Shown one piece after another: positions 1-38,157 of a stretch of DNA of 58,886 bases. Numbering within the stretch: position 1 is the first letter of the stretch; every line of letters starts with the position of its first letter. The stretch is taken from contig JAXMLA010000192.1 in the NCBI GenBank assembly GCA_034370465.1, forward strand, positions 1 to 58,886, given 5' to 3'. The stretch comes from Desulfuromonadales bacterium (GTDB taxonomy: Bacteria > Desulfobacterota > Desulfuromonadia > Desulfuromonadales > UBA2197). Under the pieces are notes generated by a model. That model did not search any database and was not told where the DNA came from. It saw nothing but the letters and a program-made list of their open reading frames with translations. The translations under genes and the position numbers were made by a program.

Positions 1-876
1 GGGGAGGGAGAAGATCGGCACCCCCTTCTTGATCGCGAAGGCGAGGGGGCGACCGGGTTTGATATCGACCTTCCAGAAGAGCTGCTTGGCGCCGAGTTCT
101 CCGAGGATTTCGCGCACCAGATCGCGGTCGCCGGCCGAGACCCCGGCCGAGGTGATGAGGAGATCACAGTGAAGGCCGGCGCTGAGTTTGGCGCGCAGCG
201 ATTCGCGGTCGTCGCTGGCAATGCCGAGTTGCACCGGCACGCCGCCGAGTTCGAGGACCGAGGCGGCGAGGGACCAGCTGTTGCTGTTGATGATCCGTCC
301 GGCGGTGAGGGGCTCTCCGAGTTCGATCAGTTCGTCGCCGGTGGAGAGGATGGCGACGCGGGGACGACAATGGACGGCGACATCCATCCGCCCCAGGGAG
401 GCGAGCATGCTGATCTCGGCCGGCCGCAGGATGGTGCCGACCGGGAGGACCTCCTCGCCGCTGCGCACGTCTTCGCCGCGACGACGGATGTGATTGCCGG
501 GAGGAAGGGGGCCACGCAGGGTGACGGTCGCCCCGTCATTCTCGGTCTCTTCGATCGGGACGACGGCGTCAGCCCCCGGCGGCAGCGGCGCCCCGGTCAT
601 GATGCGGACCGCGCACCCCGGCAGGACCGGCGGTTGTTCGGTACTGCCGGCGGCGAGATAGCCGCTGACCGTCAGAGTTTTGCCGGGACCGCTGTCAACA
701 GCGCGCAGGGCATAGCCGTCCATCGCTGAATTATCGAAGTGCGGGAGATCAAAGGGAGCGATCACCCCTACAGCGATCGCCCGCCCGAGGGCTTCGAGGA
801 GCGGGACGGTCTCGGCGGCCAGAGGCTGGATCTGCGCCAGGATCAGTTGCTGCGCATCTTCGTAGCTCAGGGGCAT
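1..876 (-). CDS. moeA: Molybdopterin molybdenum/tungsten transferase MoeA paralog 2, 3' end runs off the window
   Basis: Not in ORF track (no stop in window). Manual translation from ATG at 876: MPLSYEDAQQLILAQIQPL...FDNSAMDGYA...IMTGA...TSAGVSAGDRD...WKVDIKPGRP; clearly paralogous to 867..2108. Confidence 0.92.
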   Translation of the reverse strand, partial: MPLSYEDAQQLILAQIQPLAAETVPLLEALGRAIAVGVIAPFDLPHFDNSAMDGYALRAVDSGPGKTLTVSGYLAAGSTEQPPVLPGCAVRIMTGAPLPPGADAVVPIEETENDGATVTLRGPLPPGNHIRRRGEDVRSGEEVLPVGTILRPAEISMLASLGRMDVAVHCRPRVAILSTGDELIELGEPLTAGRIINSNSWSLAASVLELGGVPVQLGIASDDRESLRAKLSAGLHCDLLITSAGVSAGDRDLVREILGELGAKQLFWKVDIKPGRPLAFAIKKGVPIFSLP

Positions 877-2108
877 GGTTCCCTCCCCTCAAAGGGGTCA
901 AGCATCACCACCTCGTCATTGAGGAGATGGAGGTCGACCTCGCTCCCGGCGGCAAGGACGGTCGCATCCGCGGGAAGGATGGCGAGGCCGTTGGCGCGGA
1001 CCATGGTGCGCAAGGTGCTGGTGCGCTGATCGCCGGAGGTGCTGACCCGAAAGCGCCCCGCCGCCAGGGTCACCTGCACCCGCATGAAGAGGGTTTTTCC
1101 CGCCTCCTTGCGAATCTCTTCCTGGAGGATCGCCTTGAGCAGGGGGCGGAGGACGCGGCGATGCCCCATCATCTGCAACAGCGCCGGGCGGACCAGCTCC
1201 TCGAAGGTCACCATGGTCGAGACCGGGTTGCCGGGGAGGGAGAAGACCGGCACCTGCCCGCGGATGCCGAAGGCGGTCGGCCCCCCCGGTTTCATGGCGA
1301 TCTTCCAGAAGAACTGCTGGACGCCGAGTTCGGCCAGGACCTCACGCACCAGATCGCGATCGCCGGCCGAGACCCCGGCCGAGGTGATCAGTACATCGCA
1401 GTCAAGACCGGCAGAAAAGAGGCGGCGATGGCTGTCGAGATCATCGCGGGCGATGCCGAGGAGGAGCGCTTCTGCGCCGCACTCCTGCACCGCAGCCGCC
1501 AGGGAGTAGGCATTGGAATTGACGATCTGCCCGGCGCTACGCGCCTCCCCCGGTTCGACGAGTTCGTCACCGGTCGAGACGATGGCGACGCGGGGGCGGC
1601 GGTGGACGGCGATCGACAGCCGCCCCAGAGAGGCGAGCATGCTGATTTCCGGCGGGCGGATCAGGGTGCCGCAGGGGATGACGATCGTCCCCTGTGCGAC
1701 ATCTTCACCGCGACGGCGGATGTACTGGTGGCGGCTGACCGGGGTAAGAATCCGCACAAACCCGCCTTCTTCCTGTGTCACCTCCACCGGCACGACCGCA
1801 TCACAACCGGCCGGCAAGGCGGCGCCGGTCATGATCTTGACAGCACTGCCAGCGGTCACCACCGGGGTCGGCGAGCCGCCGGCAGCGATGAAGCCGGTGA
1901 CCCTGAGGAGGGTCCCGGCCTGACAGTCGGCGGCGTGGATCGCATAACCATCCATGGCCGAGACATCACAATCGGGGAGATCGCAGGGGGAGATCACCTC
2001 TTCGGCGAGGATGCGGCCGGCGGCGGCCAGGAGCATCACCCGTTCGACCCCGAGGGTCGGAACCTGCTCGAGGATGAGCTGGCGGGCGTCGCTAAAGGAG
2101 ATCGGCAT
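867..2108 (-). CDS. moeA: Molybdopterin molybdenum/tungsten transferase MoeA paralog 1
   Basis: SAMDGYA, IMTGA, STGDEL, TSAGVSAGDRD, LPGNP motifs; start MPISFSD overlaps the tupC stop (TGATG). Confidence 0.95.
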   Translation of the reverse strand: MPISFSDARQLILEQVPTLGVERVMLLAAAGRILAEEVISPCDLPDCDVSAMDGYAIHAADCQAGTLLRVTGFIAAGGSPTPVVTAGSAVKIMTGAALPAGCDAVVPVEVTQEEGGFVRILTPVSRHQYIRRRGEDVAQGTIVIPCGTLIRPPEISMLASLGRLSIAVHRRPRVAIVSTGDELVEPGEARSAGQIVNSNAYSLAAAVQECGAEALLLGIARDDLDSHRRLFSAGLDCDVLITSAGVSAGDRDLVREVLAELGVQQFFWKIAMKPGGPTAFGIRGQVPVFSLPGNPVSTMVTFEELVRPALLQMMGHRRVLRPLLKAILQEEIRKEAGKTLFMRVQVTLAAGRFRVSTSGDQRTSTLRTMVRANGLAILPADATVLAAGSEVDLHLLNDEVVMLDPFEGREPCP

Positions 2109-2794
2109 CAGTGCGCCTCCAGGACATGGGGAGAGTTGGCAACGAGGGGTGGGCAAAGACGTCCGCGGTCGAGAGTCAGGACGATCCCGTCGAGCCGCCG
2201 CGACTGATCTTTGTCGTGACTGGCGATGACGAGGGTCGTCCCCTGCCCCTTGAGAGTTGCCAGACAAGCTTCAAAGAGGGGGAGAACTTCCCGGTCGAGC
2301 CCGGCGGTCGGTTCGTCGAGGAGGAGGAGTTGCGGCCGCAGCACCATGGCCCGGGCGAGGGCGACGCGGCGACTCTCCCCGCCGGAGAGGGTGCGGACAT
2401 GGCGCTCTTCGAAACCGGCCAGCCCCACCGTCTCCAGAGCCTTGCGGATGCGGCGATCCTGCAGCTCGCCACGCACGTCCCGCAGACGCAGACCAAAGGC
2501 GAGGTTCTGATAGACGCTGGTGGCAAAGAGGTAGGGTTGCTGTTCGACCAGGGTGATGCTCCGGCGCAAGCGCTGCCGCTGCGTTTCTTCCCTGACCACT
2601 TCGCCAGAGAAAGAGATGCTCCCGGCGGTCGGCACCAGCAGCAGGGCGAGGAGATGAAGGAAAGTACTCTTGCCGGCGCCGTTCGTCCCTTCAAGAAGAT
2701 AGATCTGCCCGCTCTCCAGTTCGAGATGGTTTATCGCCAGGCAAAAATCGCCGCGCTGGAAGGTCAGGTCGTGCAAGGTTGCGAAGGGCGCCAT
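2108..2794 (-). CDS. tupC: Tungstate ABC transporter ATP-binding subunit
   Basis: Walker A GTNGAGKS, LSGGE signature, LLLLDEP; follows tupAB. Confidence 0.88.
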   Translation of the reverse strand: MAPFATLHDLTFQRGDFCLAINHLELESGQIYLLEGTNGAGKSTFLHLLALLLVPTAGSISFSGEVVREETQRQRLRRSITLVEQQPYLFATSVYQNLAFGLRLRDVRGELQDRRIRKALETVGLAGFEERHVRTLSGGESRRVALARAMVLRPQLLLLDEPTAGLDREVLPLFEACLATLKGQGTTLVIASHDKDQSRRLDGIVLTLDRGRLCPPLVANSPHVLEAH

Positions 2795-2799
2795 AATCT

Positions 2800-3486
2800 T
2801 TACCTTTGCTGCAGGAGGTTGAGAAAGAGGTTGACGATCAAGGCCACACTCATCAGCACGAGTCCGAGAGCGAGGCCAAAGGCAAACTCCCCTTTGCTCG
2901 TCTCCAGAGCGATGGCGGTGGTCATCGTCCGGGTGCTGCCGCGGATATTGCCGCCGAGCATCATCGCCACCCCGACCTCGGCGATCACCCGGCCGAAGCC
3001 GGCGACGATCGCCGCCATCATCCCGAAACGGACCTCCAAAAGGAGCTGACAGGCGCCGCGCAGTCGGCCGGCGCCGAGAGTCAGGGCGGTCGGCAGGATG
3101 CGCGGATCAGCGCCGGCGACCGCGGCCAGGGTGTAGTTGGCGACGATCGGAACCGCCAGAACCACCTGCCCGGCGATCATCGCCCAGGGAGTAAAGAGGA
3201 GTCCCAGGGGTCCGAGGGGACCCTGGCGACTGAAGAGGCCGAAGAGAACCAGTCCGACCACCACTGTCGGCAACGCCATCAAGGTGTTGAGGAGGGTGGT
3301 GAGAAACCGCTGTCCCGGGAAGCTGCCGAGGCCGATCGCGGCGCCGATCGGAATACCGAGCAGCGCCGCGACGACGATCGCCAGCAGCGAGGTGTAGAGG
3401 GAGACCCAGACCGCACTCGCGACATCCTGGTTCAGGTTGATGATCATGCCGAGCGCCGCGCTCAGCGAGGTGAGCAGGTAGTCCAA
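2800..3486 (-). CDS. tupB: Tungstate ABC transporter permease
   Basis: Hydrophobic; LPTVVVGL, GPLGPLGLLFT, GGNIRGSTRTMTTAIALETSKG typical of TupB; TTG start. Confidence 0.92.
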   Translation of the reverse strand: MDYLLTSLSAALGMIINLNQDVASAVWVSLYTSLLAIVVAALLGIPIGAAIGLGSFPGQRFLTTLLNTLMALPTVVVGLVLFGLFSRQGPLGPLGLLFTPWAMIAGQVVLAVPIVANYTLAAVAGADPRILPTALTLGAGRLRGACQLLLEVRFGMMAAIVAGFGRVIAEVGVAMMLGGNIRGSTRTMTTAIALETSKGEFAFGLALGLVLMSVALIVNLFLNLLQQR

Positions 3487-3498: not shown

Positions 3499-4293
3499 TT
3501 ACTTGCTGATGTAGAAGAGTTGATCGCCGTTGATCTTGAAACCGGTGATCAGGCTCTGCCCCTGCTTTGAAGTCAGAAAGTCGATGAACTTCTTCGCCAG
3601 TGCGACCTTGACGTGCGGATGTTTGGCCGGATTGACCATGATCACGCCGTAGGGATTGAAGAGGACGGGGTCCCCTTCGACCGCGACCTTGAGGTTGGTC
3701 TTGCTCTTGTAAGCGAGATAGGTGCCGCGATCGGCGAGGGTGTAGCCGCCGCGCTCGGTCGCCATGGTGATGACCTCGCCCATGCCGAGGCCGGCTTCGA
3801 GATACCAGCTGCCGCTCGGGGTGACACCGGCTGATTTCCAGATCTCCTTCTCCATCTGATGCGTCCCGGAATCGTCGCCGCGGGAGACGAAGGTCGCCTT
3901 TTTGGCGGCGATCCTGGTCAGCGCTGCCGCAACATTCTTCGTCCCGGCGATCCCGGCCGGGTCAGCGCTCGGGCCAAGGAGGACGAAGTCGTTATACATG
4001 ACATCGCGGCGATCGACGCCGAAGCCGGCGGCGACGAACTTGTCCTCGGCCTTGCGGGCGTGGACGAGGACAACATCGACATCGCCGGTCTCGCCCAGTT
4101 TGAGGGCCTTGCCGGTGCCGACGGCGATGACATCGACCTTGCAGTTGTTGGCCGCCTCGAAGGGGGGGAGGAGGTCGGCGAGGAGACCGGAGTTCTCGGT
4201 GGAGGTGGTCGTCGCCAGGCGCAGATGCTCGATGGCAAAAGCCGGTACGGCGAGGAGGATTAACAACAGGGCCGTCACTAAACGCTGCATCAT
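3499..4293 (-). CDS. tupA: Tungstate ABC transporter substrate-binding protein
   Basis: Signal peptide, TupA-diagnostic ATTTS motif, GTGKAL, SRGDDSGTH, NPY. Confidence 0.93.
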   Translation of the reverse strand: MMQRLVTALLLILLAVPAFAIEHLRLATTTSTENSGLLADLLPPFEAANNCKVDVIAVGTGKALKLGETGDVDVVLVHARKAEDKFVAAGFGVDRRDVMYNDFVLLGPSADPAGIAGTKNVAAALTRIAAKKATFVSRGDDSGTHQMEKEIWKSAGVTPSGSWYLEAGLGMGEVITMATERGGYTLADRGTYLAYKSKTNLKVAVEGDPVLFNPYGVIMVNPAKHPHVKVALAKKFIDFLTSKQGQSLITGFKINGDQLFYISK

Positions 4294-4372: not shown

Positions 4373-4753
4373 TCAGATAAATACTTCCCGTTTCCTGATC
4401 GTCTTCATCTTCTTGAGGAGCTCCAGACCGACCTGACAGGCGGCAAAGCTGTTGGCACTCGCCTCGGCGCAGACGGCCACCAGGGAGATGATCTCACCAA
4501 CCTCCAGCACTCCGCTGCGCCGTTGCAGCAGCACATCGCTGATCGGCCATCCCGCCCGCAGGATGCTGACGATCTCTTCGAGCTCGGCTTCCGCCCCGGC
4601 TTCGGCCTGATATTCGACGGCGCTGCTCCTCTGCCCGCTGCCGCCATCAGCCTTGACCACGGCAAAATGGAGGAGGATAGAGCCGGCGCGTCCCGGCTGG
4701 AGGAGCTGATAGCTGCGTTGCGGATCGATAGGGTCGGTGACGATCTGGATCAT
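4373..4753 (-). CDS. moaE: MoaE-like molybdopterin synthase large subunit (divergent)
   Basis: MIQIVTDPIDP...GSILLHFAVVK...RSGVLEVGEIISLVAV...FAAC...LKK..RKRE; RBS GGAGG before ATG 4753. Confidence 0.72.
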   Translation of the reverse strand: MIQIVTDPIDPQRSYQLLQPGRAGSILLHFAVVKADGGSGQRSSAVEYQAEAGAEAELEEIVSILRAGWPISDVLLQRRSGVLEVGEIISLVAVCAEASANSFAACQVGLELLKKMKTIRKREVFI

Positions 4754-4795
4754 TTTGGCCTCCGGTTGGGTTGAAAGATTTTGTGCAGGGGCCAT

Positions 4796-4827
4796 AAAAA
4801 AGGTCCCTTTCCAATTGGAAAGGGACC
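4796..4827 (-). terminator. Intrinsic terminator, probable riboswitch expression platform
   Basis: Perfect inverted repeat GGTCCCTTTCCAA/TTGGAAAGGGACC followed by T6 on the minus strand, between the Moco-type aptamer and moaE. Confidence 0.85.
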
Positions 4828-4855
4828 CGAATCCGGCACACCTGGGGCGCGCGGG

Positions 4856-4958
4856 GGGTTCTCCTTTCCAAAAGGGAGGCATGGCCGTTTCCAGCCATAC
4901 CCGTTGGCCGCACGCCCTGGGGATCAACCCGTTAGGCGCTGTGGCTCGGAGAGAGTTT
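4856..4958 (-). ncRNA. Moco/Tuco RNA motif (molybdenum/tungsten cofactor riboswitch)
   Basis: Minus strand CTCCGAGCC...CCTAA...GGCCAACGG-GTATGGCTG GAAA CGGCCATGC-CTCCC TTTTGGAAAGGAG matches the Moco motif hallmarks; lies upstream of moaE-tupABC-moeA. Confidence 0.85.
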
Positions 4959-4973
4959 CAATTGTCGTTGCCT

Positions 4974-5021: not shown

Positions 5022-5840
5022 TTACAGCGGGATTTCCTCGACCTCCATGTCGAGCAGGTTGATATTCAGCTGCCGGTTGCGCAGCAATCGTCCTTGACCA
5101 AGCAGGATCTTGCAGACTTCGGCCACTTGAAAACTGGCCACCACCGCCGGGGTGAAGGCGGGGTTGCCGAGCTGCTGTTCGATCCCCTTGCCGCCGCTCC
5201 AGTGGCGATAGAGTTTGGCCAGGGAACGGTCGCCAGGGAAGATGGTGGTGACGTGGCCATACCAGCCGCCGATGGCGCCGTGCACCAGCGGAACCTGCAG
5301 GCCTTCGCAGAGCTCCTCCAGTTCGAGGCGGGAAGGGACGTTGTCGACCGCATCGACCACACAGTCAGCGCCGGCCAGGAGGCTAACTCCCTGCGCCTTG
5401 TCGAGGCGCGCCTGCACCGCGCGCACCGTCACTGCCGGATTGATCTCGGCGATTCGCTCCGCCGCCACCTCCACCTTGACGCGACCGAGCTTGGCCGGCG
5501 ACGCAAGGAGTTGGCGGTTCAAATTGTGTTCCTCAAAGACGTCATCGTCGATGATGACGATCTGCCCGACGCCGAGGCGCGCCAGCTCTTCGAGGATATA
5601 GCCCCCGAGCCCGCCGGCGCCGACCACCGCCACGCTGCTGCGCAGGAGCCGGAGCTGCTGGGGGGTGGAGATCATCTGCTGGTTGCGCTGGTAACGCGCC
5701 GGCAGCAGGTTGTTCTCTAAAATTCTTCCCTCCACAGCGGCCAATGTCAATTCGAAATCTGCCGCTGCCTGGCACTGGTCCTGCCAGGAGATCAGTCCGG
5801 AGAGAGCCTTAGTCGCGAGGAAAGTAGCCAGCGCCGTCAT
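5022..5840 (-). CDS. ThiF/MoeB/HesA family sulfur-carrier adenylyltransferase
   Basis: RYQRN, VVGAGGLG, DDDVFEEHNLNRQ, VDAVDN; directly after a MoaD-like gene. Confidence 0.9.
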   Translation of the reverse strand: MTALATFLATKALSGLISWQDQCQAAADFELTLAAVEGRILENNLLPARYQRNQQMISTPQQLRLLRSSVAVVGAGGLGGYILEELARLGVGQIVIIDDDVFEEHNLNRQLLASPAKLGRVKVEVAAERIAEINPAVTVRAVQARLDKAQGVSLLAGADCVVDAVDNVPSRLELEELCEGLQVPLVHGAIGGWYGHVTTIFPGDRSLAKLYRHWSGGKGIEQQLGNPAFTPAVVASFQVAEVCKILLGQGRLLRNRQLNINLLDMEVEEIPL

Positions 5841-5841
5841 T

Positions 5842-6066
5842 TCAGCCGCCGCCGACCAGGGGAAAGATCGCCAGCGTTTCGCCATCGACCAGCACCCGAT
5901 CGAGATCAACATGGCGGCTGCTCACCAGCAGGATGCCGAGCTGGGTCCGCGGGAGTTGCAGTTCGCTCACGATCTCGCCGACGGTCGTCCCTTGCGGATA
6001 GGTGCGCTCTTCGATCTCGAAGCGATCTTTACGAAAGGTGGCAAAGAGCTTGACGGTGATCTTCAT
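5842..6066 (-). CDS. moaD: MoaD/ThiS family sulfur carrier protein
   Basis: 74 aa, MKITVKLFATFR...LAIFPLVGGG with C-terminal GG. Confidence 0.9.
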   Translation of the reverse strand: MKITVKLFATFRKDRFEIEERTYPQGTTVGEIVSELQLPRTQLGILLVSSRHVDLDRVLVDGETLAIFPLVGGG

Positions 6067-6674
6067 GCGACCTCCTCTCCGGAATAGACCTTGAGCTTGA
6101 TAACTTCCGTGGCGGCGGGGAGATTCGTCCCGGCGCGGAGCTGATCGACCGGTAACGCCCGGCCGTCCAGCCAATAGCCCCGAACCCGCAATTGCTCCGG
6201 TTGCTGCGTAAGAAACTCCTGCCAGCGCGCTGCGCTGAGGAGGATACCCCGTGATAACAGGCGCGGGCCGAGTTCGGGGAGGAGGAGATTGAAGAGTTTG
6301 AGCTTGATCGTCCCCGATTTCACCTCCGGCGCCGTTGCTTCGTTGCGGTAGGTCATGTTGCCGCGCATCGCCGCGTAAAAACCGCCGCTGCGCATCGTCG
6401 CCCCGACCAGTCCCGGCATCGCGCCGGAGAGGGCGAGGACCGCGCCGTCGTAGATCCGGGCACTATCCATATTGTCGACCGCCCGGTGGTTGACAAAGAC
6501 GGTGGTAATCCGGGTGGAGATATATTCGGCGGCGATGCCGAACTGTTCGATCAAAAGCTCGCGGATAGTGCAACCGGACTTGACTTCCACCTCGACCCCC
6601 TCCTGAAAAAGGGGGAAGAAGATGCGCAGCAGCTCCGGCGCCAATTGCACCTCAATCGATCGACCACCCTGCAT
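6063..6674 (-). CDS. Hypothetical protein with a probable ubiquitin-like (beta-grasp) region
   Basis: TIRELL...TVFVNHRAVD...DGAVLALSGAMPGLVG; sits in the operon between aor and moaD, stop overlaps the moaD start. Confidence 0.7.
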   Translation of the reverse strand: MQGGRSIEVQLAPELLRIFFPLFQEGVEVEVKSGCTIRELLIEQFGIAAEYISTRITTVFVNHRAVDNMDSARIYDGAVLALSGAMPGLVGATMRSGGFYAAMRGNMTYRNEATAPEVKSGTIKLKLFNLLLPELGPRLLSRGILLSAARWQEFLTQQPEQLRVRGYWLDGRALPVDQLRAGTNLPAATEVIKLKVYSGEEVA

Positions 6675-6741
6675 GCGCTCCGGTCCTTTCCAATGACGGG
6701 AGGGGAGACCGGATCCGGCCTCCCCTCCTCTTGACAAAAAC

Positions 6742-29628: not shown

Positions 29629-29629
<1 letters not shown>

Positions 29630-30840
29630 CACTTGTCCTGACATTGGGAGAGTTTCACGACAAATTCCGTACCTTTCCCGAGTTGGCTCTGCACCTCGAT
29701 CACTCCGTCATGTTTCTTGATGATGTCGTAAGTCACCGCCAGGCCCAGCCCCTGCCCCTTGCCGACGACTTTGGTGGTGAAGAAGGGATTCCAGATCTGA
29801 TCAAGCATCTCGGCAGCGATACCGGTGCCGGTATCGATCACCCGCGCCACCACCTGCGAACCCTCGACATCGGTCTCAACCCGCACCGATCCCTTCCCTT
29901 CAATCGCCTGCAAGGCATTGAGCACCAGATTCAAAAAGACTTGGCGTAGTGCACAGGCGTCTCCAAAAATCGGCGGGAGAGGGACAAAAAGATTCTCTTC
30001 GAGAGCGATGTTCTTGTCCCGACCGAGATGACGGACCAGTTCCAGAACTTCGCTGACAATCTCGTTGAGATCGACCCGACCGAAGGCTCCTTCCGATTTA
30101 CGGCTGAAGCTCAGGAGACTGTCGATGATCCCTTTGCAGCGATAGACCTCGCGGACGATGATCTCCAGATAATGCGGGAAATCGGCCAGACGCGGATCGT
30201 CGCTCAAATCGGCAGCCCCGCGAAAGCGGCGCTGCAGGGCTTCGGCATAACCGGCGACCGAGGTCATCGGATTATTGATTTCATGCGCCACCCCGGCTGC
30301 CAGCATGCCGATGCTCGACAGCTTCTCCGCCTGCAGAAGCTGTAACTCCTGAGCGCGGCGTTCGCTCACATCCCGAATCAACAGGAGGGCTTGATTCCCG
30401 GCCAGGGGGTCGGCAATCGGGGTGGCGGTGACATCAAAAAAGAGATTATTACCGCCACGCTTGGCGATGGAGAAGGACATCTGGCAACTCTCGCCGCGCA
30501 GAGCCCGACCGACCGGACAGCTGGCATGGTCTTCAGGGCGGTCGGGATGGAAAAGGACCCGGCAATCCGTGCCGATCATGCTCTCCTCGGCAAAGAGGCG
30601 GGGCGCCAGCTGGTTGCGATACTGTACCAGACTGTCCCGGTCGTAAATGATCACGCAGTCGCCGATGGCATCGAAGACCGCTTGCAATTCGGACTTCTTG
30701 GTGCGCAGGCTCTGGTTGGCGGCTTCCAGTTCCGCAATCTTCTCCTTGACCTCGGCATAGAAGCCGATCTTGCCGGTCTCGATCCCCATGAGGCTATCGA
30801 GAAACTTGTCGTCGATCGCTGCGGACTTGATCTCTTTCAT
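29629..30840 (-). CDS. PAS sensor histidine kinase (ErcS-like N-terminus)
   Basis: AHEINNPM, NLVLNA, DTGTG, PFFTTK; translationally coupled on both sides. Confidence 0.9.
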
Positions 30841-32000
30841 TAAAACGCTCGTTTCAATAGCGCCAACAGATCGTCTTCGTCCGTCACCCGCGGTGAGGTG
30901 AGGAGACAGACATCCCGGCTGGCGCGCTCCGCCAGCACTGGCAAATCTTCCTCCCTGACCCCGAGATGACGCAGACTCCGCGGCGTGCCGCCGGCTTCGA
31001 GAAGGGTATTGATCGTCTCCTGAGTCATCTCCTCCATCATCCGCGAGTCGCTCTCCGGCCGGTGACCGAGGGCGGCCGCCATCTCCGGCAGTTTTTCCTG
31101 AACGACCGGGAAGTCGTAGCGCAGCACCTCGGGAAGGAGGACAGCGTTGACACTGCCGTGGTTGGCATCGTAAAGCCCGCCGATCGGATGGGCCAGGGCA
31201 TGGCCGATGCCGAGGAGCGAATTCGAGAAGGCCATACCGGCATGGAGACTGGCCCGCGCCAGGTTCTCCAGATCGTGCGGGTTGCGCTCGCGCACCGCCG
31301 GGCCGAGGCTGCGCGTCAACAGGGTCAGGGCGCGCAGGGCGTTGACATCGGTCAGGGTCGAGGACGCCAGGGAGAAATAGGCTTCGACCGCGTGACTGAG
31401 GGAGTCGATCGCCGTCGCTCCGACATGCTCATCAGGGAGGGTACGGAGAGTGTCCGGGTCGGTAAGGCTGATATCCGGGGCGACACAGCGGCTCATGATC
31501 GTGAATTTGCACTGCTCCTGGCTATCGTTGACAATCACGAACTGGGAAACATCCGAGCCGGTGCCGCAGGTCGTCGGGCAAAGGACCAGGGGAGGAAGTG
31601 GACGGTGAATCCGGTCGGTCCCGGCGTATTCCCGAATCTTCCCGCCATTGGAGACGAGGATGGCAATTCCCTTGGCCGCATCCATGGCGCTGCCGCCGCC
31701 GAGGCCGACGATCACATCCGCCCCCTGGGTGATATATTCGCGGGCGCCGGCTTCGATTTCGTAATCCTTGGGATTGGAGGTCACCTGATCAAAATAGACA
31801 AAGGTTAAGCCGGCCGCGAGCAGGCTTTTCATCACCTGGTCGACCAAGCCGGCCGCGAAGAGCCCCTGATCGCTGACCAGAAAGACCTTTTTGCCGCCGA
31901 GCCGGCGGGCACAGACGCCGGCCTGGTCGAGGAGCCCCCGGCCGAAGATGATTTCGGGGACTTCAAATTTACAGTGATGGTGCGGTTCTTCCCAATTCAT
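30840..32000 (-). CDS. Iron-containing ADH family protein, ErcA-like
   Basis: KFEVPEIIFG, GGGSAMD, PTTCGTGSDVSQFVI, AFSNSLLG..HALAH, HG. Confidence 0.85.
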   Translation of the reverse strand: MNWEEPHHHCKFEVPEIIFGRGLLDQAGVCARRLGGKKVFLVSDQGLFAAGLVDQVMKSLLAAGLTFVYFDQVTSNPKDYEIEAGAREYITQGADVIVGLGGGSAMDAAKGIAILVSNGGKIREYAGTDRIHRPLPPLVLCPTTCGTGSDVSQFVIVNDSQEQCKFTIMSRCVAPDISLTDPDTLRTLPDEHVGATAIDSLSHAVEAYFSLASSTLTDVNALRALTLLTRSLGPAVRERNPHDLENLARASLHAGMAFSNSLLGIGHALAHPIGGLYDANHGSVNAVLLPEVLRYDFPVVQEKLPEMAAALGHRPESDSRMMEEMTQETINTLLEAGGTPRSLRHLGVREEDLPVLAERASRDVCLLTSPRVTDEDDLLALLKRAF

Positions 32001-32091
32001 TGAGGCTCTCCAGAGAACGCTGTCATCGTGCGCCAGTTGGTAAGGGGCACTTTCCGCGTTATGCCATGAATAAAACACCTAATGCTGTCTT

Positions 32092-32173: not shown

Positions 32174-32208
32174 GCGGGAGTTTCTCTACGCTGTAGCACC
32201 TTTCCCCA
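32174..32208. promoter_or_regulatory. Paired 16-bp putative enhancer sites in the divergent promoter region
   Basis: GCGGGAGTTTCTCTAC-gct-GTAGCACCTTTCCCCA, same geometry as 8824..8858. Confidence 0.62.
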
Positions 32209-32488: not shown

Positions 32489-32504
32489 TGGCACCACGGT
32501 TGCA
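32489..32504 (+). promoter_or_regulatory. sigma54 promoter of the DUF4242/channel/porin operon
   Basis: TGGCAC-CACGG-TTGCA, perfect consensus. Confidence 0.85.
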
Positions 32505-32742: not shown

Positions 32743-33018
32743 ATGCCAAAGTTTGTTATCGAGAGGGAGATTTTCGGTGCTGGCCAGCTGAGCGCCAGTG
32801 ACCTGACCGCTATCTCCCAAAAGTCCTGCGGGATCCTGCAACAACTCGGTCCGCAGATCCAGTGGGTGGAGAGCTTTGTCACCGCTGACAAGATTTACTG
32901 TGTGTACATTGCGCCGAGCGCCGAGATGATCCGCGATCACGCCCGCAAGGGGGGATTTCCGGCCAACAGTGTATCGGAAGTGCTGACGATGATCGATCCG
33001 ACCACGTCGGAAGAGTAG
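32743..33018 (+). CDS. DUF4242 family protein
   Basis: MPKFVIEREI.GAG.LS...IQWVESFVT.DKIYCVY.AP...H...GGFPAN. Confidence 0.85.
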   Translation: MPKFVIEREIFGAGQLSASDLTAISQKSCGILQQLGPQIQWVESFVTADKIYCVYIAPSAEMIRDHARKGGFPANSVSEVLTMIDPTTSEE

Positions 33019-33063: not shown

Positions 33064-33594
33064 ATGACTTTACCATTGCTTTTGCTCATCTGCATGATGT
33101 GGGTCCCCGTCGGTCTTTTTTTTCTCGGCTATGGCGAGGCGAGGAGTACCGCTTTTGTCACCGCCATTGTCGGCACCGTCGTCATTATCGGCGCGATCCT
33201 GCAGGCAGCGATCTTTGCTGACCCCTTTACCGCCGGACTCCTCTTCGTCTTTGGCGTTCTTTATCTGCAGACCGCGCATGCGCTGTGGACGGGATTGACC
33301 GATATGCGTTCGGTCGGCAACGGCGCCCTGGTCGTCGCCATCGTTTGTGCCATGTATGCTTTTCTCTTCTTCACCGGCGGCGGCGTCAAAGCCGATGGCA
33401 GCCCGATCATCGGCATTACCCCCTATCTCGGCTTCATGAACGTGACCTTTGTCGTCATCTGCCTCACCGTGGTCGGTGTGACTTACGGCAAACTCAGCGC
33501 CAAGCTGGCGGCGTATATGTTTCTGGTCCTCAGCTTCACCTGCCTCTTTGTCCCGGCGATCGGGCTTATGGGTTACGGGAAACTTCCCTTTTAA
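33064..33594 (+). CDS. Small polytopic membrane protein, AmiS/UreI channel-like
   Basis: About 6 hydrophobic segments; LLFVFGVLYL and DMRSVGN resemble the AmiS/UreI pattern. Confidence 0.6.
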   Translation: MTLPLLLLICMMWVPVGLFFLGYGEARSTAFVTAIVGTVVIIGAILQAAIFADPFTAGLLFVFGVLYLQTAHALWTGLTDMRSVGNGALVVAIVCAMYAFLFFTGGGVKADGSPIIGITPYLGFMNVTFVVICLTVVGVTYGKLSAKLAAYMFLVLSFTCLFVPAIGLMGYGKLPF

Positions 33595-33657
33595 TCATTG
33601 CCGGCGACGGTCAACGACACGCCACCTCTGACAACTTTCCATGGAAAAGGAGAATTT

Positions 33658-34779
33658 ATGAAATCGCTGCAACGACTCAAAGCTTTGCTCCCCTGCCTGC
33701 TGGTCCTGGCCCTCTGTGTGCCGGCTTCCGCCGCCATCACCCTGTACGACAAAGAGAACACAACCTTCAGCACCGACGGCTCGTTTAACACCTTCTATGT
33801 CTATAGCGACGACGATGCCGGCCAGACTCAATCCCGGGTCAAAATGGGTTTTCTCCCCAACTATATCGGCTTTAATTTCGGCAAGCAGGCCGGCAACCTG
33901 AAACTCGGCGGTCGCTCGTCCTTCTGGGTCACGATCAACGACAGTGATGCGGCCGGCACCTCCACCGGGATCGATGTTCGTCAGTTCTACGGCACCGTCG
34001 ATGCCGACTGGGGCCAGGTCCTCTTCGGCAAAGACTTCACCCTCTTTAACCGCTCCAACATCTTTCTTGACGAGATTCTCCAGGGCTTCGGTAAATCGGC
34101 TGGCGTTCCCGGCATTGATACCGATGGCGTCTCTTTCGGCAATATCGGCTCGGGCTACACCTATCCGCTCCCCTCCGCCCAGATCACTTATCGCACCCCT
34201 GACCTGGCCGGCTTCAAATTGGCGGTCGGCATCATCGATCCCTCCCGCACCTCCGGGGCTGGCGGCGAAGAGACAACACCGCGCATCGAAGGGGAATTGA
34301 CTTTCAACAAAAGCATTGGTCAGGGCTCGGTCACCGCCTGGGGGGGTTTTCTGACCCAGAAATCCGAAAAAGGGGCCAGCGGTGATGTCGATTCGCAAGG
34401 CCTCTCCTACGGTCTCAACGGCAAAATTGCCGGCTTCAGTCTCACCGGTTCCGGTTTCACCGGCAAAGGGATCGGCAAGGTTCTCGGACCTGGTTTAGCT
34501 GTCGATCCGCTCCTTGAAGCCGGGGATGAAGTCGACAGCAATGGTTATCTCGTGCAGGCTTCCTACACCATCGACAAGGTCAAACTGGTCGGTTCCTACG
34601 GCAAGAGCAAGCTTGAGACCGCGGTAGAAACGGAAGACGAAACTATCGTCGGGGCTATTTTTTATTCGATCAATGACTATCTCAAACTCGCCGCTGAATA
34701 TAATGTCCAGACCATCACCACCGGCAGCGTCGACAATGAAATCAATACCGTGGCTTTAGGTGCAATCCTCAACTTCTAG
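33658..34779 (+). CDS. Outer-membrane porin
   Basis: Signal peptide (ASA-A), beta-rich sequence, SRVKMGFLPN, C-terminal Phe. Confidence 0.88.
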   Translation: MKSLQRLKALLPCLLVLALCVPASAAITLYDKENTTFSTDGSFNTFYVYSDDDAGQTQSRVKMGFLPNYIGFNFGKQAGNLKLGGRSSFWVTINDSDAAGTSTGIDVRQFYGTVDADWGQVLFGKDFTLFNRSNIFLDEILQGFGKSAGVPGIDTDGVSFGNIGSGYTYPLPSAQITYRTPDLAGFKLAVGIIDPSRTSGAGGEETTPRIEGELTFNKSIGQGSVTAWGGFLTQKSEKGASGDVDSQGLSYGLNGKIAGFSLTGSGFTGKGIGKVLGPGLAVDPLLEAGDEVDSNGYLVQASYTIDKVKLVGSYGKSKLETAVETEDETIVGAIFYSINDYLKLAAEYNVQTITTGSVDNEINTVALGAILNF

Positions 34780-34912: not shown

Positions 34913-36229
34913 TTGACCATCAATGCAACCAGCGACCATCCCGCCCTCCGTCCTTATCCTTCCAAGCTCTTCGTCGAGATCACCTCGCGCTGCAACCTCG
35001 GTTGCTTCATGTGTGTCAAGCAGACCGGCGGCGGTTGCATTGCCGAGGGGGATCTGAGCGCGGCACACTTCGCGGCTTTGGAACCGGCCTTTCCGACCCT
35101 GGAGGCTTTGCTCCTCAACGGCGTCGGCGAACCCCTCCTCCACCCGCACCTCGAAGCTTTCATCCGTCGCGCCAAAGAGCTGATGCCGACGGGAAGTACC
35201 GTCGGCTTCCAGTCGAACGGTCTCCTCCTCACACCGCAGCGCGCCCTCGCCCTGGCGGAGGCCGGACTTGACCGCATCTGCCTGTCGGTCGATGCCAGCA
35301 CCCCGGAGATCTTCCGCCAACTGCGCCGGGGCGGTGAGCTGCCGGCCATCGACAGAGCCTTTGCCGCTCTGCAGCGCGCCAGGGAAACCAGCGGCCGGGA
35401 TGATCTGCAGGTCGGCGCCGAAGTGGTGGTGATGCGCGACAATCTCTCCGCCCTGCCGGCGACTCTGGAGTGGGCCGCCCAACGCGGCGCCACCTTCGCC
35501 ATCGTCACCCACATCCTCCCCTACGAACAGGCCCACGCCGGTCAGGCTGTCTACGTCCCCTGTACCGATGCCGCCATCGCCCACTTTCAACAGTGGCAGG
35601 AGCGAGCCCGTCTGGAAGGGGTGGCGATGGAGCGCTACTTCGAGATCCTCTTCAAGTTCGCCAAGAATCCGGAAGAGCAGCGGATCATCGCCTTTGTCGA
35701 GCGGATGAAAGCGGCGGCCGAAGAGGAAGGGCTCTTTCTCGACCTTTCCAAACTCTTCTCCATCGATGTCAGCTGGATAACCCATGTCGAAGAGATCTTC
35801 GCCCAGGCGCGCCGCGTCGCCGAACGCAACCACCTCGAACTGCACCTGCCGCAGGTAGCGCCCAAAGCGAAGAGGCTCTGTCACTTCGTCGAAGAAGGCG
35901 GAGCCTTTGTCTCCTGGCAGGGGGAGATCCATCCCTGCTATTTCCTTTGGCATCAGTACAACTGCTTTGCCAGCGGCTGGCAGCAGCCGGTCCGGCCGAA
36001 AATCTTCGGCCATCTTGATCAAAGCGATATTCTCGCGATCTGGAACGATCCTGCTTTTTGCAGCTTCCGCCACAACGTCACAGGTTACGACTACCCCCAT
36101 TGCATCAGCTGCCGCCTTGCCCCCTGCGACTATGTGCAAGCCGAGGAGTTCGAGCAGGACTGCCACGTCAAGGACGAGCCGTGCGGCAGCTGCCTGTGGT
36201 GCATGGGGCTCTTCCAGTGTTTACGTTAA
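34913..36229 (+). CDS. Radical SAM/SPASM putative metalloenzyme (W-oxidoreductase-associated) maturase
   Basis: CNLGCFMC, GVGEPL, CHFVEEG..PCYFLWH, CISCRLAPC, CGSCLWCMGLFQCLR. Confidence 0.85.
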   Translation: MTINATSDHPALRPYPSKLFVEITSRCNLGCFMCVKQTGGGCIAEGDLSAAHFAALEPAFPTLEALLLNGVGEPLLHPHLEAFIRRAKELMPTGSTVGFQSNGLLLTPQRALALAEAGLDRICLSVDASTPEIFRQLRRGGELPAIDRAFAALQRARETSGRDDLQVGAEVVVMRDNLSALPATLEWAAQRGATFAIVTHILPYEQAHAGQAVYVPCTDAAIAHFQQWQERARLEGVAMERYFEILFKFAKNPEEQRIIAFVERMKAAAEEEGLFLDLSKLFSIDVSWITHVEEIFAQARRVAERNHLELHLPQVAPKAKRLCHFVEEGGAFVSWQGEIHPCYFLWHQYNCFASGWQQPVRPKIFGHLDQSDILAIWNDPAFCSFRHNVTGYDYPHCISCRLAPCDYVQAEEFEQDCHVKDEPCGSCLWCMGLFQCLR

Positions 36230-36997
36230 GCAAGGAATTTTCTAGCAAATTGCGTCATTGAACCGATAGGCTCGTTCATGAGGTAACCGCAGCTCGGACA
36301 GGAGCAGACAAGATCATCGCCAACCTGAACCGCAGCCAGCAGATTCTCCATGTTGCATTGAACTTGATCGAGCGTAGCTGTGCGATTCCCTTCCACAAGC
36401 TGCGGCATGCCGCAGCACTGCTGCTTCGGCACATAGACGATTATACCGTTATGTTCCAGGACCTCCACCGTCGCCCGCCCCACTTCGGGGAAGAGATAGC
36501 CAGCTGTGCAGCCGGCAAAGTAGGCGACGTTTCGCCCCCCTTCTCTCCTTCTGGTCAATCCTTTCTTTTCAGCCCACTGAAAGAAATTCTCTTGCGGAAA
36601 GGTAAGGAATTGCCGCTCGGGATGGAGATGGGTCACTTTTTTAATAGTGAGCTGACCATTTTATTTGACTGCAGGGCGTTCATCAGTTGCGGGAAAGTTC
36701 CGCACAGACGGGCGAGGCGGGGAACATCGGTCAAAAGTCGAATCGTCTGGGGAAGCCCTTCCCGATCGATATAACGGCTCTTGGCCGCCATCAAATCGGC
36801 AGGGATGTGGGGACAAGGACACAAACCGCAGAGGGTACAAAGATCTACCAGGCTGCGCAGCTCCGCTTCGTCAATAGGCCTCCCAAGAGACAATCCACAT
36901 CCATGAGTTCACGGCAGGTGTCGCAGTCGGCGCACAACTCCACGACGCTGCGCACTATTTTCTGAGGGGGGCGATCTTTCGAATCAGTCGGCTTCAT
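36226..36997 (-). pseudogene. Degraded (Fe-S)/CCG-domain oxidoreductase (GlpC/HdrD-like)
   Basis: Three frames carry consecutive pieces: CADCDTCR; CTLCGLCPC; YFAGC..QQCCGMP..CSCPSCG; 3'-truncated. Confidence 0.8.
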
Positions 36998-37369
36998 TTG
37001 TCACCTTAATCTGAGGAGGAGAGAAGATGGACCTGGTGCCGGATTCAACGGCAACCGCCACCAGGCCAGACGGCGGCCGGATAACAGTCGCACTCTTTCT
37101 GAGGGTTTTGAAGAATTGGATATGACTTTTTATAGGCGAACTATATCCGCGTATGCGGATCTGTCAAATCTCTGTTTGTCGCTTCTTAACACTGGAGATG
37201 ATTACAGCAGACCTGTTTCTTTCCGGAAAATCTGAAGTGGTTAAACAATCCCGGACCACACAAATTGCAGAAATATGCTCAAAATAGGTGTGTTAACCCT
37301 GGAATTGACGGAAAGTGCTTCTCTGTGAGAAAATAATGATAGAAAGTGGATACAACGTTTAAGCAATAA

Positions 37370-37650
37370 CAGCTGCGTGGGGCGTCTTTCCTTGCGTCCT
37401 CATCGCCAGCGACCGGACCGATCTTGCGCGAGCGGGAGGTCTCCTGCGTTTCCGATATCTGCACCGGCAGCCCACTGAGCGGGATTCATGTAGGACTTTC
37501 GCTGGCACGGGGTGATTACATCTAAGATTTTACGATCTGGTTTGCGTTCGTTACCTCGATGCAGAGACCCTTCGCTCGGCTGCAGCGCAGCGCGCCCTGC
37601 TCAACTCTCAATACCCCGGAGGATCTCCGGCGCATGGACAAGGAGGCACC
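37370..37650 (+). pseudogene. mobA: Degraded molybdenum cofactor guanylyltransferase
   Basis: Manual translation across frameshifts: VFPCVLIASDRTDLARAG / VSDICTGSPLSGIHVGLSLARGDYI* / RFYDLVCVRYLDAETLR..ALLN / LNTPEDLRR; directly upstream of mobB. Confidence 0.78.
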
Positions 37651-38157
37651 ATGGCCCCCCCTGTTGTATCGATCGTCGCCAAGAGCGGCACCGGCAAGAC
37701 CACCCTGCTGGAGAAGCTGATTGTTGAACTTAAAGCGCGCGGCTACCGCGTCGGTGCCGTCAAGCACGACGCCCACAGCTTCAGTATTGACCACGAGGGG
37801 AAGGATTCCTGGCGATTGACCCAGGCCGGCGCCGATACGACGCTGATCACCTCCCCTGCCAAGGTCGCCATGGTCAAGATGAACGTCGGGGAGGAGCCGG
37901 CGCTGTCAGAAACGATTGCGCGCTACTGTGGCGATCTCGACATCGTCTTGACCGAAGGATTCAAACGCAGCACCATGCCGAAGATTGAAGTCCATCGGCA
38001 GGAGCGCAGCAACGCGTTGTTATGTCGCGGTGAAGAGTTCGATCCCCAGCTTTTCGCGGTTGCCTCCGATACTGATCTGCAACTCGATGTGCCGGTCTTC
38101 GATCTCAATGACGCACCCGGCATCTGCGATCTGATTGTCGCTCGGTTTCTGACATAA
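37651..38157 (+). CDS. mobB: Molybdopterin-guanine dinucleotide biosynthesis protein B
   Basis: AKSGTGKTT, AVKHDAH, GKDSWR, EGFK, PKIEV. Confidence 0.93.
   Translation: MAPPVVSIVAKSGTGKTTLLEKLIVELKARGYRVGAVKHDAHSFSIDHEGKDSWRLTQAGADTTLITSPAKVAMVKMNVGEEPALSETIARYCGDLDIVLTEGFKRSTMPKIEVHRQERSNALLCRGEEFDPQLFAVASDTDLQLDVPVFDLNDAPGICDLIVARFLT

Follow-up and report, generated by a model that had tools for sequence, protein, structure and literature searches.

A Mycofactocin-Linked Gene Island of Desulfuromonadales with a Tungsten-Type Aldehyde Oxidoreductase and Its Putative Role in Anaerobic Alcohol Oxidation

Gene Content of the Island

The window analyzed here is the whole stretch of 58,886 nucleotides (nt) of contig JAXMLA010000192.1, which is part of a MAG (metagenome-assembled genome) from a Desulfuromonadales bacterium (GenBank assembly GCA_034370465.1). 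Candidate genes were selected among open reading frames with the aid of GC content at third codon positions (GC3), and the encoded proteins were scanned against Pfam and NCBIfam. A dense gene island, mainly on the minus strand, extends from base 1 to ~38.2 kb, and the genes past ~38 kb are housekeeping genes unrelated to it. The island unites a mycofactocin (mft) operon with an Fe-type alcohol dehydrogenase (ADH) and its partner genes, a tungsten-type aldehyde:ferredoxin oxidoreductase (AOR) with tungstate uptake and pterin genes, a porin/channel operon and a sigma54 activator cluster. These components, along with an old yellow enzyme (OYE), an electron-transfer flavoprotein (ETF), FixC, and FixX, had been named for positions 1–38,157 in a sequence-only reading; the scans found every one of them where it had been placed, and the observation is thus confirmed but for minor changes of gene boundaries.

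The genes of the mft operon overlap or nearly abut in the order mftA-mftB-mftC-OYE2-etfA-fixC-fixX-etfB-mftF, and a gap of ~300 bp separates the operon from the AOR gene:

17073–17189, minus strand: mftA, encoding a peptide that ends with IDGICGVY (TIGR03969, 39.5 bits, cut-off 25)
16814–17071, minus strand: mftB (TIGR03967, 52.4 bits, cut-off 33)
15796–16833, minus strand: mftC (TIGR03962, 355.2 bits, cut-off 265)
13796–15757, minus strand: OYE2, a flavoenzyme of the FadH/trimethylamine dehydrogenase (TMADH) class with flavin mononucleotide (FMN), [4Fe-4S], and FAD (TIGR03997, 961.5 bits, cut-off 793.15)
12768–13796, minus strand: EtfA, ETF alpha-type subunit (Pfam ETF_alpha and ETF; mft_etfA, NF038209, 137.7 bits, cut-off 240)
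11473–12771, minus strand: fixC, ETF:quinone oxidoreductase (two FixC models, 398.7 bits with cut-off 466 and 394 bits with cut-off 610)
11192–11488, minus strand: fixX, ferredoxin-like (FixX model, 53.4 bits, cut-off 166)
10283–11179, minus strand: EtfB, ETF beta-type subunit (Pfam ETF; mft_etfB, TIGR04503, 76.8 bits, cut-off 200)
8868–10355, minus strand: mftF, glycosyltransferase (TIGR03965, 379.1 bits, cut-off 280)

MftA, MftB, MftC, MftF, and OYE2 pass the NCBIfam equivalog cut-offs, and MftA also exceeds that of variant_MftA (NF040489, 36.3 bits with cut-off 30). For the ADH, MoxR, VWA, EtfA, EtfB, FixC, FixX, and TupA-like proteins, the expected model is the best one but the score stays below the cut-off; thus, mft_etfA and mft_etfB are the top-scoring models for the two ETF subunits. 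The C-terminus of MftA is ICGVY or VCGVY in every anaerobe-type locus with a Val-Tyr core. IDGMCGVY was found in three loci with canonical mft genes, namely, that of Pseudonocardia and the metagenome loci L224 (mftD and mftE) and L223 (mftD only), and a subgroup of loci has MftA ending with VDGICGIY.

The putative catabolic enzymes and the two genes that accompany the ADH are as follows:

6742–8490, minus strand: tungsten-type AOR (Pfam AFOR_N 193 bits, AFOR_C 262 bits)
24746–26002, minus strand: Fe-type ADH, methanol-dehydrogenase-like (Pfam Fe-ADH and ADH_Fe_C; TIGR04266, 302.3 bits, cut-off 625)
23675–24577, minus strand: MoxR-type ATPase (MadB-like, 301 bits, cut-off 475)
22266 to ~23672, minus strand: von Willebrand factor A (VWA)/CoxE-type protein (Pfam VWA_CoxE; MadC-like, 154 bits, cut-off 600)

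The ADH had been described as MDO/MNO-like; the resemblance was borne out, but by the TIGR04266 score the protein does not belong to that family, and the ErcA model scores it almost as high (299.6 vs. 302.3 bits). Its closest relative with a solved structure is an NAD-dependent methanol dehydrogenase (PDB 8zrl, 276 bits). The AOR matches solved AOR proteins (9mqx, 315 bits; 1aor, 280 bits), whereas the score with formaldehyde oxidoreductase (1b25) is just 149 bits. With a methanol dehydrogenase as the nearest solved match of the ADH, and with the AOR scoring better against AOR than against formaldehyde oxidoreductase, methanol, ethanol, and diols are all candidate substrates. The NPKD-type stretch identified by Haft with SIMBAL was rejected as an ADH marker, as both the ADH and its ErcA-like paralog contain it.

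The longest reading frame of the VWA gene overlaps MoxR by 423 nt. In relatives, the VWA gene starts directly after the MoxR stop codon; in one of them (G146), 77% of the query is matched by a VWA hit whose end lies 8 nt away from MoxR. The start at 24098 was therefore rejected in favor of one just past the MoxR stop. A literature search found no paper linking MadB and MadC to alcohol dehydrogenase.

Regulatory Elements

Elements of the TGGCAC-N5-TTGC type (−24/−12) were searched for as sigma54 promoters. Eight matches to the consensus were detected (3.6 expected), four of which lie in the correct orientation in the leaders of AOR, mftA, ADH, and the SCO4226/channel/porin operon. For TGGGGA-N5-GCCAC, a further motif, six matches were counted (1.6 expected); all three exact ones and one of the three with a single mismatch fall in the same four upstream regions, 145–400 nt upstream of the −24/−12 elements, which is the position for an enhancer-binding protein. 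The shared promoter motifs reported by the sequence-only reading are thus confirmed. The sites, the regulatory genes, and two molybdenum/tungsten cofactor (Moco/Wco) riboswitches are listed below:

8659–8673, minus strand: sigma54 element of AOR, upstream motif at 8843–8858, element kept in 10 of 15 relatives
17251–17265, minus strand: sigma54 element of the mftA operon, upstream motif at 17394–17409, kept in 19 of 19 assessable relatives
26140–26154, minus strand: sigma54 element of ADH, upstream motif at 26537–26552, kept in 14 of 14 relatives
32489–32503, plus strand: sigma54 element of the SCO4226/channel operon, upstream motif at 32193–32208, kept in 9 of 10 relatives
28262–29644, minus strand: sigma54-dependent response regulator (Sigma54_activat 218 bits, Response_reg)
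29629–30840, minus strand: PAS kinase, between the activator and the ErcA-like gene
30840–32078, minus strand: ErcA-like Fe-ADH-type sensor protein (ErcA model, 406 bits, cut-off 550)
4845–4963, minus strand: Moco/Wco riboswitch before the moaE-tup-moeA operon (Rfam RF01055, 66 bits, gathering score 36)
8498–8615, minus strand: Moco/Wco riboswitch in the AOR leader (RF01055, 67.4 bits)

The genome of the window also contains rpoN, so that −24/−12 elements, an activator with the AAA+ sigma54-interaction domain, and the sigma factor gene itself were all found. At the level of sequence, the existence of one regulon is well supported. The trio of ErcA-like, kinase, and activator genes occurs in 11 of 20 relatives. 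The AOR leader combines a sigma54 promoter with a cofactor-sensing riboswitch.

Distribution of the Island

The occurrence of the island was assessed in 233 species representatives of the order (71 genera). MftC exceeds the cut-off in 37 of these genomes, and at E ≤ 1e-60 it was found in 40 genomes from 22 of the 71 genera; the three further genomes from the genus of the window have none. The distribution in the order is patchy.

For analysis of synteny, ±20 kb around mftC were taken from 20 genomes, and the window proteins were placed on them by tblastn. The full mftB-mftC-OYE2-etfA-fixC-fixX-etfB-mftF run was found in 19 of 20 relatives. The AOR gene lies within ~5 kb of mftF in 15 relatives, and in 14 the ADH block falls inside the region taken. 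OYE2 and mftC share a contig, no more than ~300 bp apart, in 30 of the 37 mftC-positive genomes; in four, OYE2 is on another short contig, and in three it is absent. Only four genomes of the order (G083, G127, G133, G162) contain OYE2 at E ≤ 1e-150 while having no mftC over the cut-off. ADH orthologs (identity at least 73%) were identified in 33 of the 233 genomes, 31 mftC-positive ones and two exceptions, both fragmented assemblies, one of which holds an OYE2 fragment. The ADH ortholog is thus almost confined to mftC-positive genomes. AOR orthologs (identity at least 76%) are present in 39 genomes, 26 of them mftC-positive.

A similar arrangement was detected outside the order. Among 401 genomes sampled from the phylum of a Moorellales-type MAG, three carry mftC, and two of them (G360 and G611) are readable. 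Both contain the ErcA-like, PAS kinase, and sigma54 regulator genes, the SCO4226-like gene, AOR, mftC, two OYE genes, etfA, fixC, fixX, etfB, and mftF; the gene for the AmiS/UreI-like channel is present in G611 only. Both OYE proteins of G360 exceed the TIGR03997 cut-off. The synteny in 19 of 20 relatives, the occurrence in a second phylum, and the conserved sigma54 sites argue for one conserved and probably co-regulated unit, as had been supposed.

A scan of metagenomes with an mftC alignment yielded 80 loci, of which the 19 with at least 8 kb downstream of mftC were assessed. OYE2, etfA, and etfB occur together in 14 of the 19; fixC accompanies them in 11, a CCG-domain protein is found instead in two, and one has neither. 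One locus is canonical, with mftD. The remaining four have mftBC and AOR (mftF in two of them), and no OYE2/ETF or mftD was found in them within 10 kb. AOR was detected in 12 of all 19 loci. If the module serves to carry electrons to the quinone pool, as it may, a non-orthologous exchange of FixCX for another putative ETF-to-membrane oxidoreductase is what one would expect.

In loci L196 and L203 (and L047/G234), the CCG-domain protein is encoded between OYE2 and etfA, no fixC or fixX was found, and two OYE paralogs follow mftC. Locus L175 (12596–15398), from the subgroup with mostly VDGICGIY, has mftB-mftC-mftF followed by genes for a LarE-like PP-loop protein, a LarB-like protein of the AIR carboxylase family, the nickel-insertion protein LarC (492 bits), and AOR; these Lar-type genes hint at a link with the nickel-pincer cofactor. 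The SCO4226-like "nickel-responsive" protein of the window (32743–33018) may be mentioned beside them. A contig scan with the OYE2 alignment gave mostly generic FadH/OYE loci, and among the matches listed mftC was present only in L045–L047, L076, and L116.

Relatives of the mft genes were also met in environmental sequence runs. River metatranscriptome contigs (two runs of one study) match the region of 13.8–17.2 kb (relatives of OYE2, mftC, mftB, and mftA) with 90–99% likeness, and one contig of 636 nt covers the start of mftC, mftB, and mftA; these contigs come from relatives and are no evidence of expression. Parts of the region 8400–17400 are present in DNA runs from groundwater, soil, and rhizosphere, and the window may derive from one of these runs.

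Properties of OYE2, EtfAB, and FixCX

According to comparison with solved structures, OYE2 is closest to naphthoyl-CoA reductase (NCR, 327 bits), followed by FadH (257 bits), TMADH (227 bits), and histamine dehydrogenase (216 bits). Its sequence retains the cluster motif CxxCxxxC...C and contains one GxGxxG. In the aligned active-site stretch, OYE2 has GHSSL, TMADH has AHSYL, NCR has IVGYL, and FadH has SEGYL. The third domain of OYE2, as in TMADH, has no Gly-rich motif of the kind present at the NADPH site of FadH, and the Cys that carries FMN in TMADH corresponds to Leu in OYE2. The active-site, FMN-binding, and NADPH-motif residues of TMADH and FadH are those that we take to have these functions.

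The best solved match of EtfB is 1o94_C, the W3A1 ETF of the TMADH complex, and those of EtfA are bifurcating ETFs (CarE and the Clostridium difficile Etf). FixC gives a full-length match with FixC of Thermotoga maritima (PDB 7koe_C, 284 bits). These features suggest that OYE2 may not be an NAD(P)H-dependent reductase but a substrate dehydrogenase with ETF as its electron acceptor. As it has a TMADH-like His-Ser pair and no NAD(P)H motif, electrons would probably flow from OYE2 through ETF and FixCX to menaquinone; delivery from ETF/FixCX to quinone is in itself plausible.

In one complete relative (G043:C11:24605–26551), the OYE2 gene contains an in-frame TGA, and decay or a recoded codon is possible. 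The same genome has no ADH ortholog, and gldA occupies the usual position of AOR.

Absence of MftD, MftE, and MftG

MftD uses O2 in vitro. In the window's genome, the best score with the MftD model (TIGR03966) is 107.6 bits at a cut-off of 470.85; none of five complete relatives contains MftD, and it exceeds the cut-off in eight of the 233 genomes of the order. No statement on the electron acceptor of MftD was found in PMC8406134. MftE (TIGR03964) reaches at best 109 bits (cut-off 172) in the same genome and passes the cut-off in none of the five complete relatives and none of the 233 genomes. A creatininase paralog was considered as a hidden MftE and rejected: 120 of the 233 genomes carry it irrespective of mftC, among them mftC-negative ones from the genus of the window, and it never exceeds the cut-off. 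For MftG (TIGR03970), no match was obtained in the window's genome, and none passed the cut-off in four complete genomes, in eight relatives searched, or in G360 and G611.

The 37 mftC-positive genomes divide into 30 with OYE2 only, four with both OYE2 and mftD, three with mftD only, and none with neither. The mftD-only genomes (G142, G146, G217) belong to three genera. As mftF directly follows mftC in them, the five-gene OYE2/etfA/fixC/fixX/etfB block is missing as a unit; in G142 and G146, mftD is located inside the island. Members of the same genera have the OYE2 block and no mftD (G145 for G146; G135, G137, and G139 for G142). This distribution suggests that the OYE2 block and MftD can substitute for each other, although independent exchange events are few (about three). 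Strict mutual exclusion was rejected in view of the four genomes carrying both and of Pseudonocardia (G235), where OYE paralogs near to the family are encoded beside mftC together with mftD and mftE. As they coexist with mftD and mftE, these OYE proteins are not simple substitutes for MftD.

Cofactor Supply and Accessory Genes

The genes related to the AOR cofactor are located on both sides of the mft operon:

1–876 (cut by the window end) and 867–2267, minus strand: two moeA genes (Pfam MoeA_N, MoCF_biosynth, MoeA_C)
2108–2794, 2800–3486, and 3499–4293, minus strand: ATPase, permease, and binding protein of a TupABC-like tungstate ABC transporter (Pfam ABC_tran, BPD_transp_1, PBP_like_2)
4373–4927, minus strand: moaE-like gene (Pfam MoaE, 70.7 bits, residues 63–173), with the true start probably downstream of the riboswitch
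5022–5912, minus strand: moeB/ThiF-type adenylyltransferase (Pfam ThiF, 190 bits)
6063–6773, minus strand: AOR-linked protein unk236, likely start at residue 34, kept next to AOR in relatives
26749–27219, minus strand: moaC (profile match)
27274–28437, minus strand: moaA (profile match)
34913–36229, plus strand: radical SAM/SPASM metalloenzyme maturase, related to the maturase of tungsten oxidoreductases (TIGR04311, 633.5 bits, cut-off 400; TIGR04317, 222.7 bits)
37651–38157, plus strand: mobB (Pfam MobB, 158 bits)

TupA is the best NCBIfam match of the transporter binding protein (235 bits, cut-off 400). The TupA-like transporter (below cut-off), the Moco/Wco riboswitches, and the TIGR04311 maturase form a context that would fit tungsten rather than molybdenum in the AOR cofactor. 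The unk236 protein has no match in Pfam or NCBIfam, and its Atlas neighbors are hypothetical families of Thermodesulfobacteriota. A putative gene "u200" on the plus strand (26608–27210) was rejected because it is antisense to moaC. At 36226–36636 on the minus strand lies a 136-aa CCG-domain fragment similar to the central part of GlpC/LdhH-type proteins, which is probably either a small subunit or a remnant; in G146, a CCG match likewise follows the radical SAM maturase.

The other genes of the island are the following:

17487–18041, plus strand: NudC-like NUDIX hydrolase with a Zn ribbon (Pfam NUDIX; best NCBIfam match NAD(+) diphosphatase, 41.8 bits, below cut-off)
18070–20082, minus strand: PAS histidine kinase (Pfam PAS, three copies, HisKA, HATPase_c)
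20024–21965, minus strand: gldA glycerol/diol dehydrogenase (NF006941, 457.7 bits, cut-off 336) and an IclR regulator (IclR domains)
21968–22246, minus strand: u92, small Cys/His-rich protein with no family match
32743–33018, plus strand: SCO4226-like protein (Pfam SCO4226-like)
33064–33594, plus strand: AmiS/UreI-like channel (Atlas lead to AmiS_UreI, 0.96)
33598–34779, plus strand: outer-membrane porin (Pfam Porin_4)

The NUDIX gene is divergent from mftA, and most relatives, as well as many of the metagenome loci, have it in this position. The activator of Bacillus methanolicus methanol dehydrogenase is a Nudix protein, and the NUDIX protein of the island may handle the ADH-bound nicotinamide cofactor. 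The Rhodococcus profiling by Haft also flagged an "NADH pyrophosphatase" (PMC3023750, available text). The gldA and IclR genes form a variable insert, with gldA found in 9 of 20 relatives (in G119 only as a 21% fragment), which points to diols as one kind of substrate for some strains. In many relatives, u92 likewise lies downstream of the gene for VWA, and its product may be a metal-handling partner of MoxR/VWA.

Comparison with Known Systems

The actinobacterial mft system (mftABCDEF, mftG, Mno/Mdo) and the island share an MftA with a C-terminal Gly-Val-Tyr core and MftB, MftC, and MftF over the curated cut-offs. They also share an Fe-type methanol-dehydrogenase-like ADH that has MoxR and VWA neighbors and co-occurs with mftC. 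The island differs in having no MftE, no MftG, and usually no MftD, while OYE2, EtfAB, and FixCX are inserted; the MftA core is IDGICGVY instead of IDGMCGVY, and control is by sigma54 instead of a TetR-type regulator. In addition, its host is an anaerobe with a tungsten-type AOR, and its ADH, unlike Mno/Mdo, is under the TIGR04266 cut-off.

The module itself resembles the chain from TMADH or histamine dehydrogenase through ETF to ETF:quinone oxidoreductase. Common to both are the three-domain FMN/[4Fe-4S] build, the active-site His-Ser, a degenerate third domain, adjacent ETF genes, an EtfB nearest to the ETF of the TMADH complex, and an ETF:quinone oxidoreductase encoded alongside. OYE2 is distinguished by the absence of the 6-S-cysteinyl-FMN Cys and by higher scores with NCR and FadH, and the quinone reductase of the island is of the FixCX type. 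As in FixABCX/EtfABCX (T. maritima, 7koe), homologs of FixC, FixX, EtfA, and EtfB are encoded in one operon; unlike that system, the island has an additional OYE2 dehydrogenase and very divergent ETF subunits, and the model considered here would need no NADH-dependent bifurcation.

Tungsten cassettes of AOR, MoaD, and MoeB were described by Iyer, Burroughs and Aravind in 2006, including those of Geobacter and Pelobacter (PMC1779556, available text). Like them, the island has, after AOR, a gene for a small conserved protein and then moeB, moaE, and moeA, together with a tungstate transporter. As far as the available text allows comparison, it differs in being joined to an mft operon, in the sigma54 promoter with a Moco/Wco riboswitch, and in the TIGR04311 maturase; unk236 may be the MoaD-like protein.

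Mft loci of Geobacter are already in print for the same lineage, with the same linkage of mft and Fe-ADH. In the available text of Haft (2011, PMC3023750), G. uraniireducens and Geobacter sp. M18 are named as mft carriers with Fe-ADH partners, and mftD and mftE are reported in "most but not all" species; "OYE", "dienoyl", and TIGR03996/7 do not occur in it. In that of Badalamenti and Bond (2015, PMC4358379), methanol-oxidation genes are reported upstream of mft in G. pickeringii, whose OYE2 is 82% identical to that of the window. The available texts of both papers contain no discussion of ETF/FixCX, of the lack of mftD/mftE/mftG, of a sigma54 regulon, or of mftD complementarity. NCBIfam already names a "mycofactocin system FadH/OYE oxidoreductase 2" and a "mycofactocin-associated ETF alpha/beta", and a search of the accessible literature found no paper joining mycofactocin with ETF; a broader one that took in OYE and FadH gave nothing relevant among the 20 papers listed of 573. 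The novelty ascribed to the locus by the sequence-only reading was consequently overstated, since PMC3023750, PMC4358379, and the NCBIfam OYE/ETF models cover much of it. The present analysis adds four points to these sources, namely, conservation of the unit as a whole across phyla, control by sigma54 and riboswitches, the lineage-wide lack of MftE and MftG, and the complementarity of the OYE2 block and MftD.

Proposed Role of the Island and Alternative Explanations

The preferred interpretation, to which we assign a probability of roughly 55%, is that the locus is a horizontally mobile island for alcohol-to-acid oxidation in anaerobes under the control of sigma54 and Moco/Wco riboswitches, where OYE2, ETF, and FixCX supply an O2-independent dehydrogenase function. 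This function is ascribed to the module because the lineage has no MftE, no MftG, and mostly no MftD, and because the module takes the place of mftD-mftE in actinobacteria.

According to this scheme, the ErcA-like sensor, the kinase, and the sigma54 activator would turn on four operons. A small neutral substrate may be admitted by the porin and the AmiS/UreI-like channel, and the methanol-dehydrogenase-like Fe-ADH, aided by MoxR/VWA, would oxidize the alcohol, with hydride passing to a mycofactocin-type cofactor formed from MftA (IDGICGVY) with MftB, MftC, and MftF. Re-oxidation of ADH-bound nicotinamide by mycofactocin is the actinobacterial model (PMC11778925, available text). OYE2, with a TMADH-like build and no NAD(P)H site, would oxidize C3 of the cofactor, and single electrons would then pass to EtfAB, FixCX, and menaquinone. 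The tungsten-type AOR, whose cofactor supply is encoded alongside, would convert the aldehyde to the acid. The OYE2/ETF/FixCX module would thus recycle mycofactocinol in the manner of MftG, and possibly also deaminate 3-amino-5-[(4-hydroxyphenyl)methyl]-4,4-dimethyl-2-pyrrolidinone (AHDP) in that of MftD. Instead of or besides recycling, it may take part in cofactor maturation as a substitute for MftD.

Several observations weigh against this interpretation. All its chemical steps are conjectural. The ADH, both ETF subunits, FixC, FixX, MoxR, VWA, and TupA remain below the NCBIfam equivalog cut-offs, and gene absences in the 91.8% complete MAG are, taken alone, weak evidence. OYE2 as a whole is nearer to the reductases NCR and FadH than to TMADH and has Leu in place of the FMN-carrying Cys, and the ETF subunits seem to point in two ways, EtfA to bifurcating and EtfB to non-bifurcating ETFs. 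The OYE2 block and MftD cannot be read as one-for-one equivalents, given the four genomes of the order that have both OYE2 and mftD, the case of Pseudonocardia, and the four metagenome loci where neither is close by, and no candidate peptidase emerged in the place of MftE. Finally, AOR had to be given up as an mft-specific marker, as 13 of the 39 genomes with its ortholog have no mftC. The pathway interpretation given by the sequence-only reading is hence partly supported: the conserved, apparently co-regulated unit and a plausible ETF/FixCX-to-quinone route stand, but the AOR clade is not specific to mft.

A farther-reaching version, which we regard as possible but doubtful, is that in anaerobes a single TMADH-like OYE2, together with a dedicated EtfAB and either FixCX or an ETF:menaquinone oxidoreductase of the CCG type, takes over the roles of both MftD, by forming the keto group from AHDP, and MftG, by re-oxidizing mycofactocinol, and thereby links nicotinoprotein ADHs to menaquinone without NAD or O2.

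It is unlikely that OYE2/EtfAB/FixCX is purely biosynthetic, i.e., an O2-independent premycofactocin synthase that deaminates AHDP with electrons passing via ETF to quinones, so that only MftD is replaced and recycling takes place elsewhere. The module does lie between mftC and mftF, the place of mftD-mftE in canonical clusters (mftC-mftD-mftE-mftF in L224); all three mftC-positive genomes devoid of the module have mftD, and 30 of the 34 that contain it lack mftD. The TMADH-like His-Ser of OYE2 and the absence of an NADPH motif agree with such a role as well. However, a stoichiometric ETF and FixCX chain of the respiratory type appears too heavy for a trace cofactor, and OYE2 has no FMN-binding Cys of amine dehydrogenases. 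OYE paralogs also stand alongside mftD/mftE in Pseudonocardia and alongside mftD in four genomes of the order, and with MftG absent too, a recycling route would still be required.

Decidedly unlikely is a catabolic function of OYE2 independent of mycofactocin, as an enoate/enoyl-type reductase or a dehydrogenase of a carbon substrate, with EtfAB/FixCX acting as in the acyl-CoA dehydrogenase/ETF system or in bifurcating FixABCX and merely co-transcribed with mft. The closest solved relatives NCR and FadH are indeed substrate reductases, bifurcating ETFs are the nearest matches of EtfA, as is T. maritima EtfABCX for FixC, and OYE-ETF pairs occur with no mftC in L050, L051, L054, and L080. Nevertheless, OYE2 adjoins mftC in 30 of 37 genomes, with only four genomes of the order having it in the absence of mftC over the cut-off, and the module is set among biosynthetic genes in two phyla. 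TIGR03997 was defined by NCBI on this very association with mft, and a catabolic function would leave the OYE2/mftD complementarity unexplained.

That the mycofactocin-like product serves the tungsten-type AOR as an electron acceptor or activity factor, with the ADH as an addition of the lineage, is very unlikely: in 15 of 20 relatives AOR does accompany mftF, and it also occurs in G360, in G611, and in 12 of 19 long metagenome loci, including the four with mftBC and AOR (two with mftF) and no OYE2/ETF, near which an Fe-ADH match is at most partial (ErcA-like in L190, where 44% of the query is matched with 43% identity), but the AOR orthologs in mftC-negative genomes, the existence of AOR-MoaD-MoeB cassettes as a known mobile unit in organisms with no mft (PMC1779556, available text), the better fit of single electrons from the AOR [4Fe-4S] cluster to ferredoxin than to a two-electron keto/hydroxy carrier, and the far tighter association of the ADH ortholog with mftC (31 of 33) all stand against it.

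Mycofactocin has so far been studied almost wholly in aerobic actinobacteria. According to the available text of Graca et al. (2025, PMC11778925), ~25% of genomes with mftC have no MftG, and what replaces it is an open question. The route from OYE2 through EtfAB and FixCX or the CCG protein to menaquinone is a concrete and testable candidate for recycling in the absence of MftG. If the module is merely co-located and catabolic, the locus is an ordinary gene neighborhood that is already annotated; the natural "swap" genomes, in which mftD replaces the module, bear directly on its role. If the preferred interpretation is true, it would explain how metal-/iron-reducing and syntrophic anaerobes could pull the thermodynamically unfavorable alcohol-to-aldehyde step via the quinone pool, with the tungsten-type AOR taking up the aldehyde.

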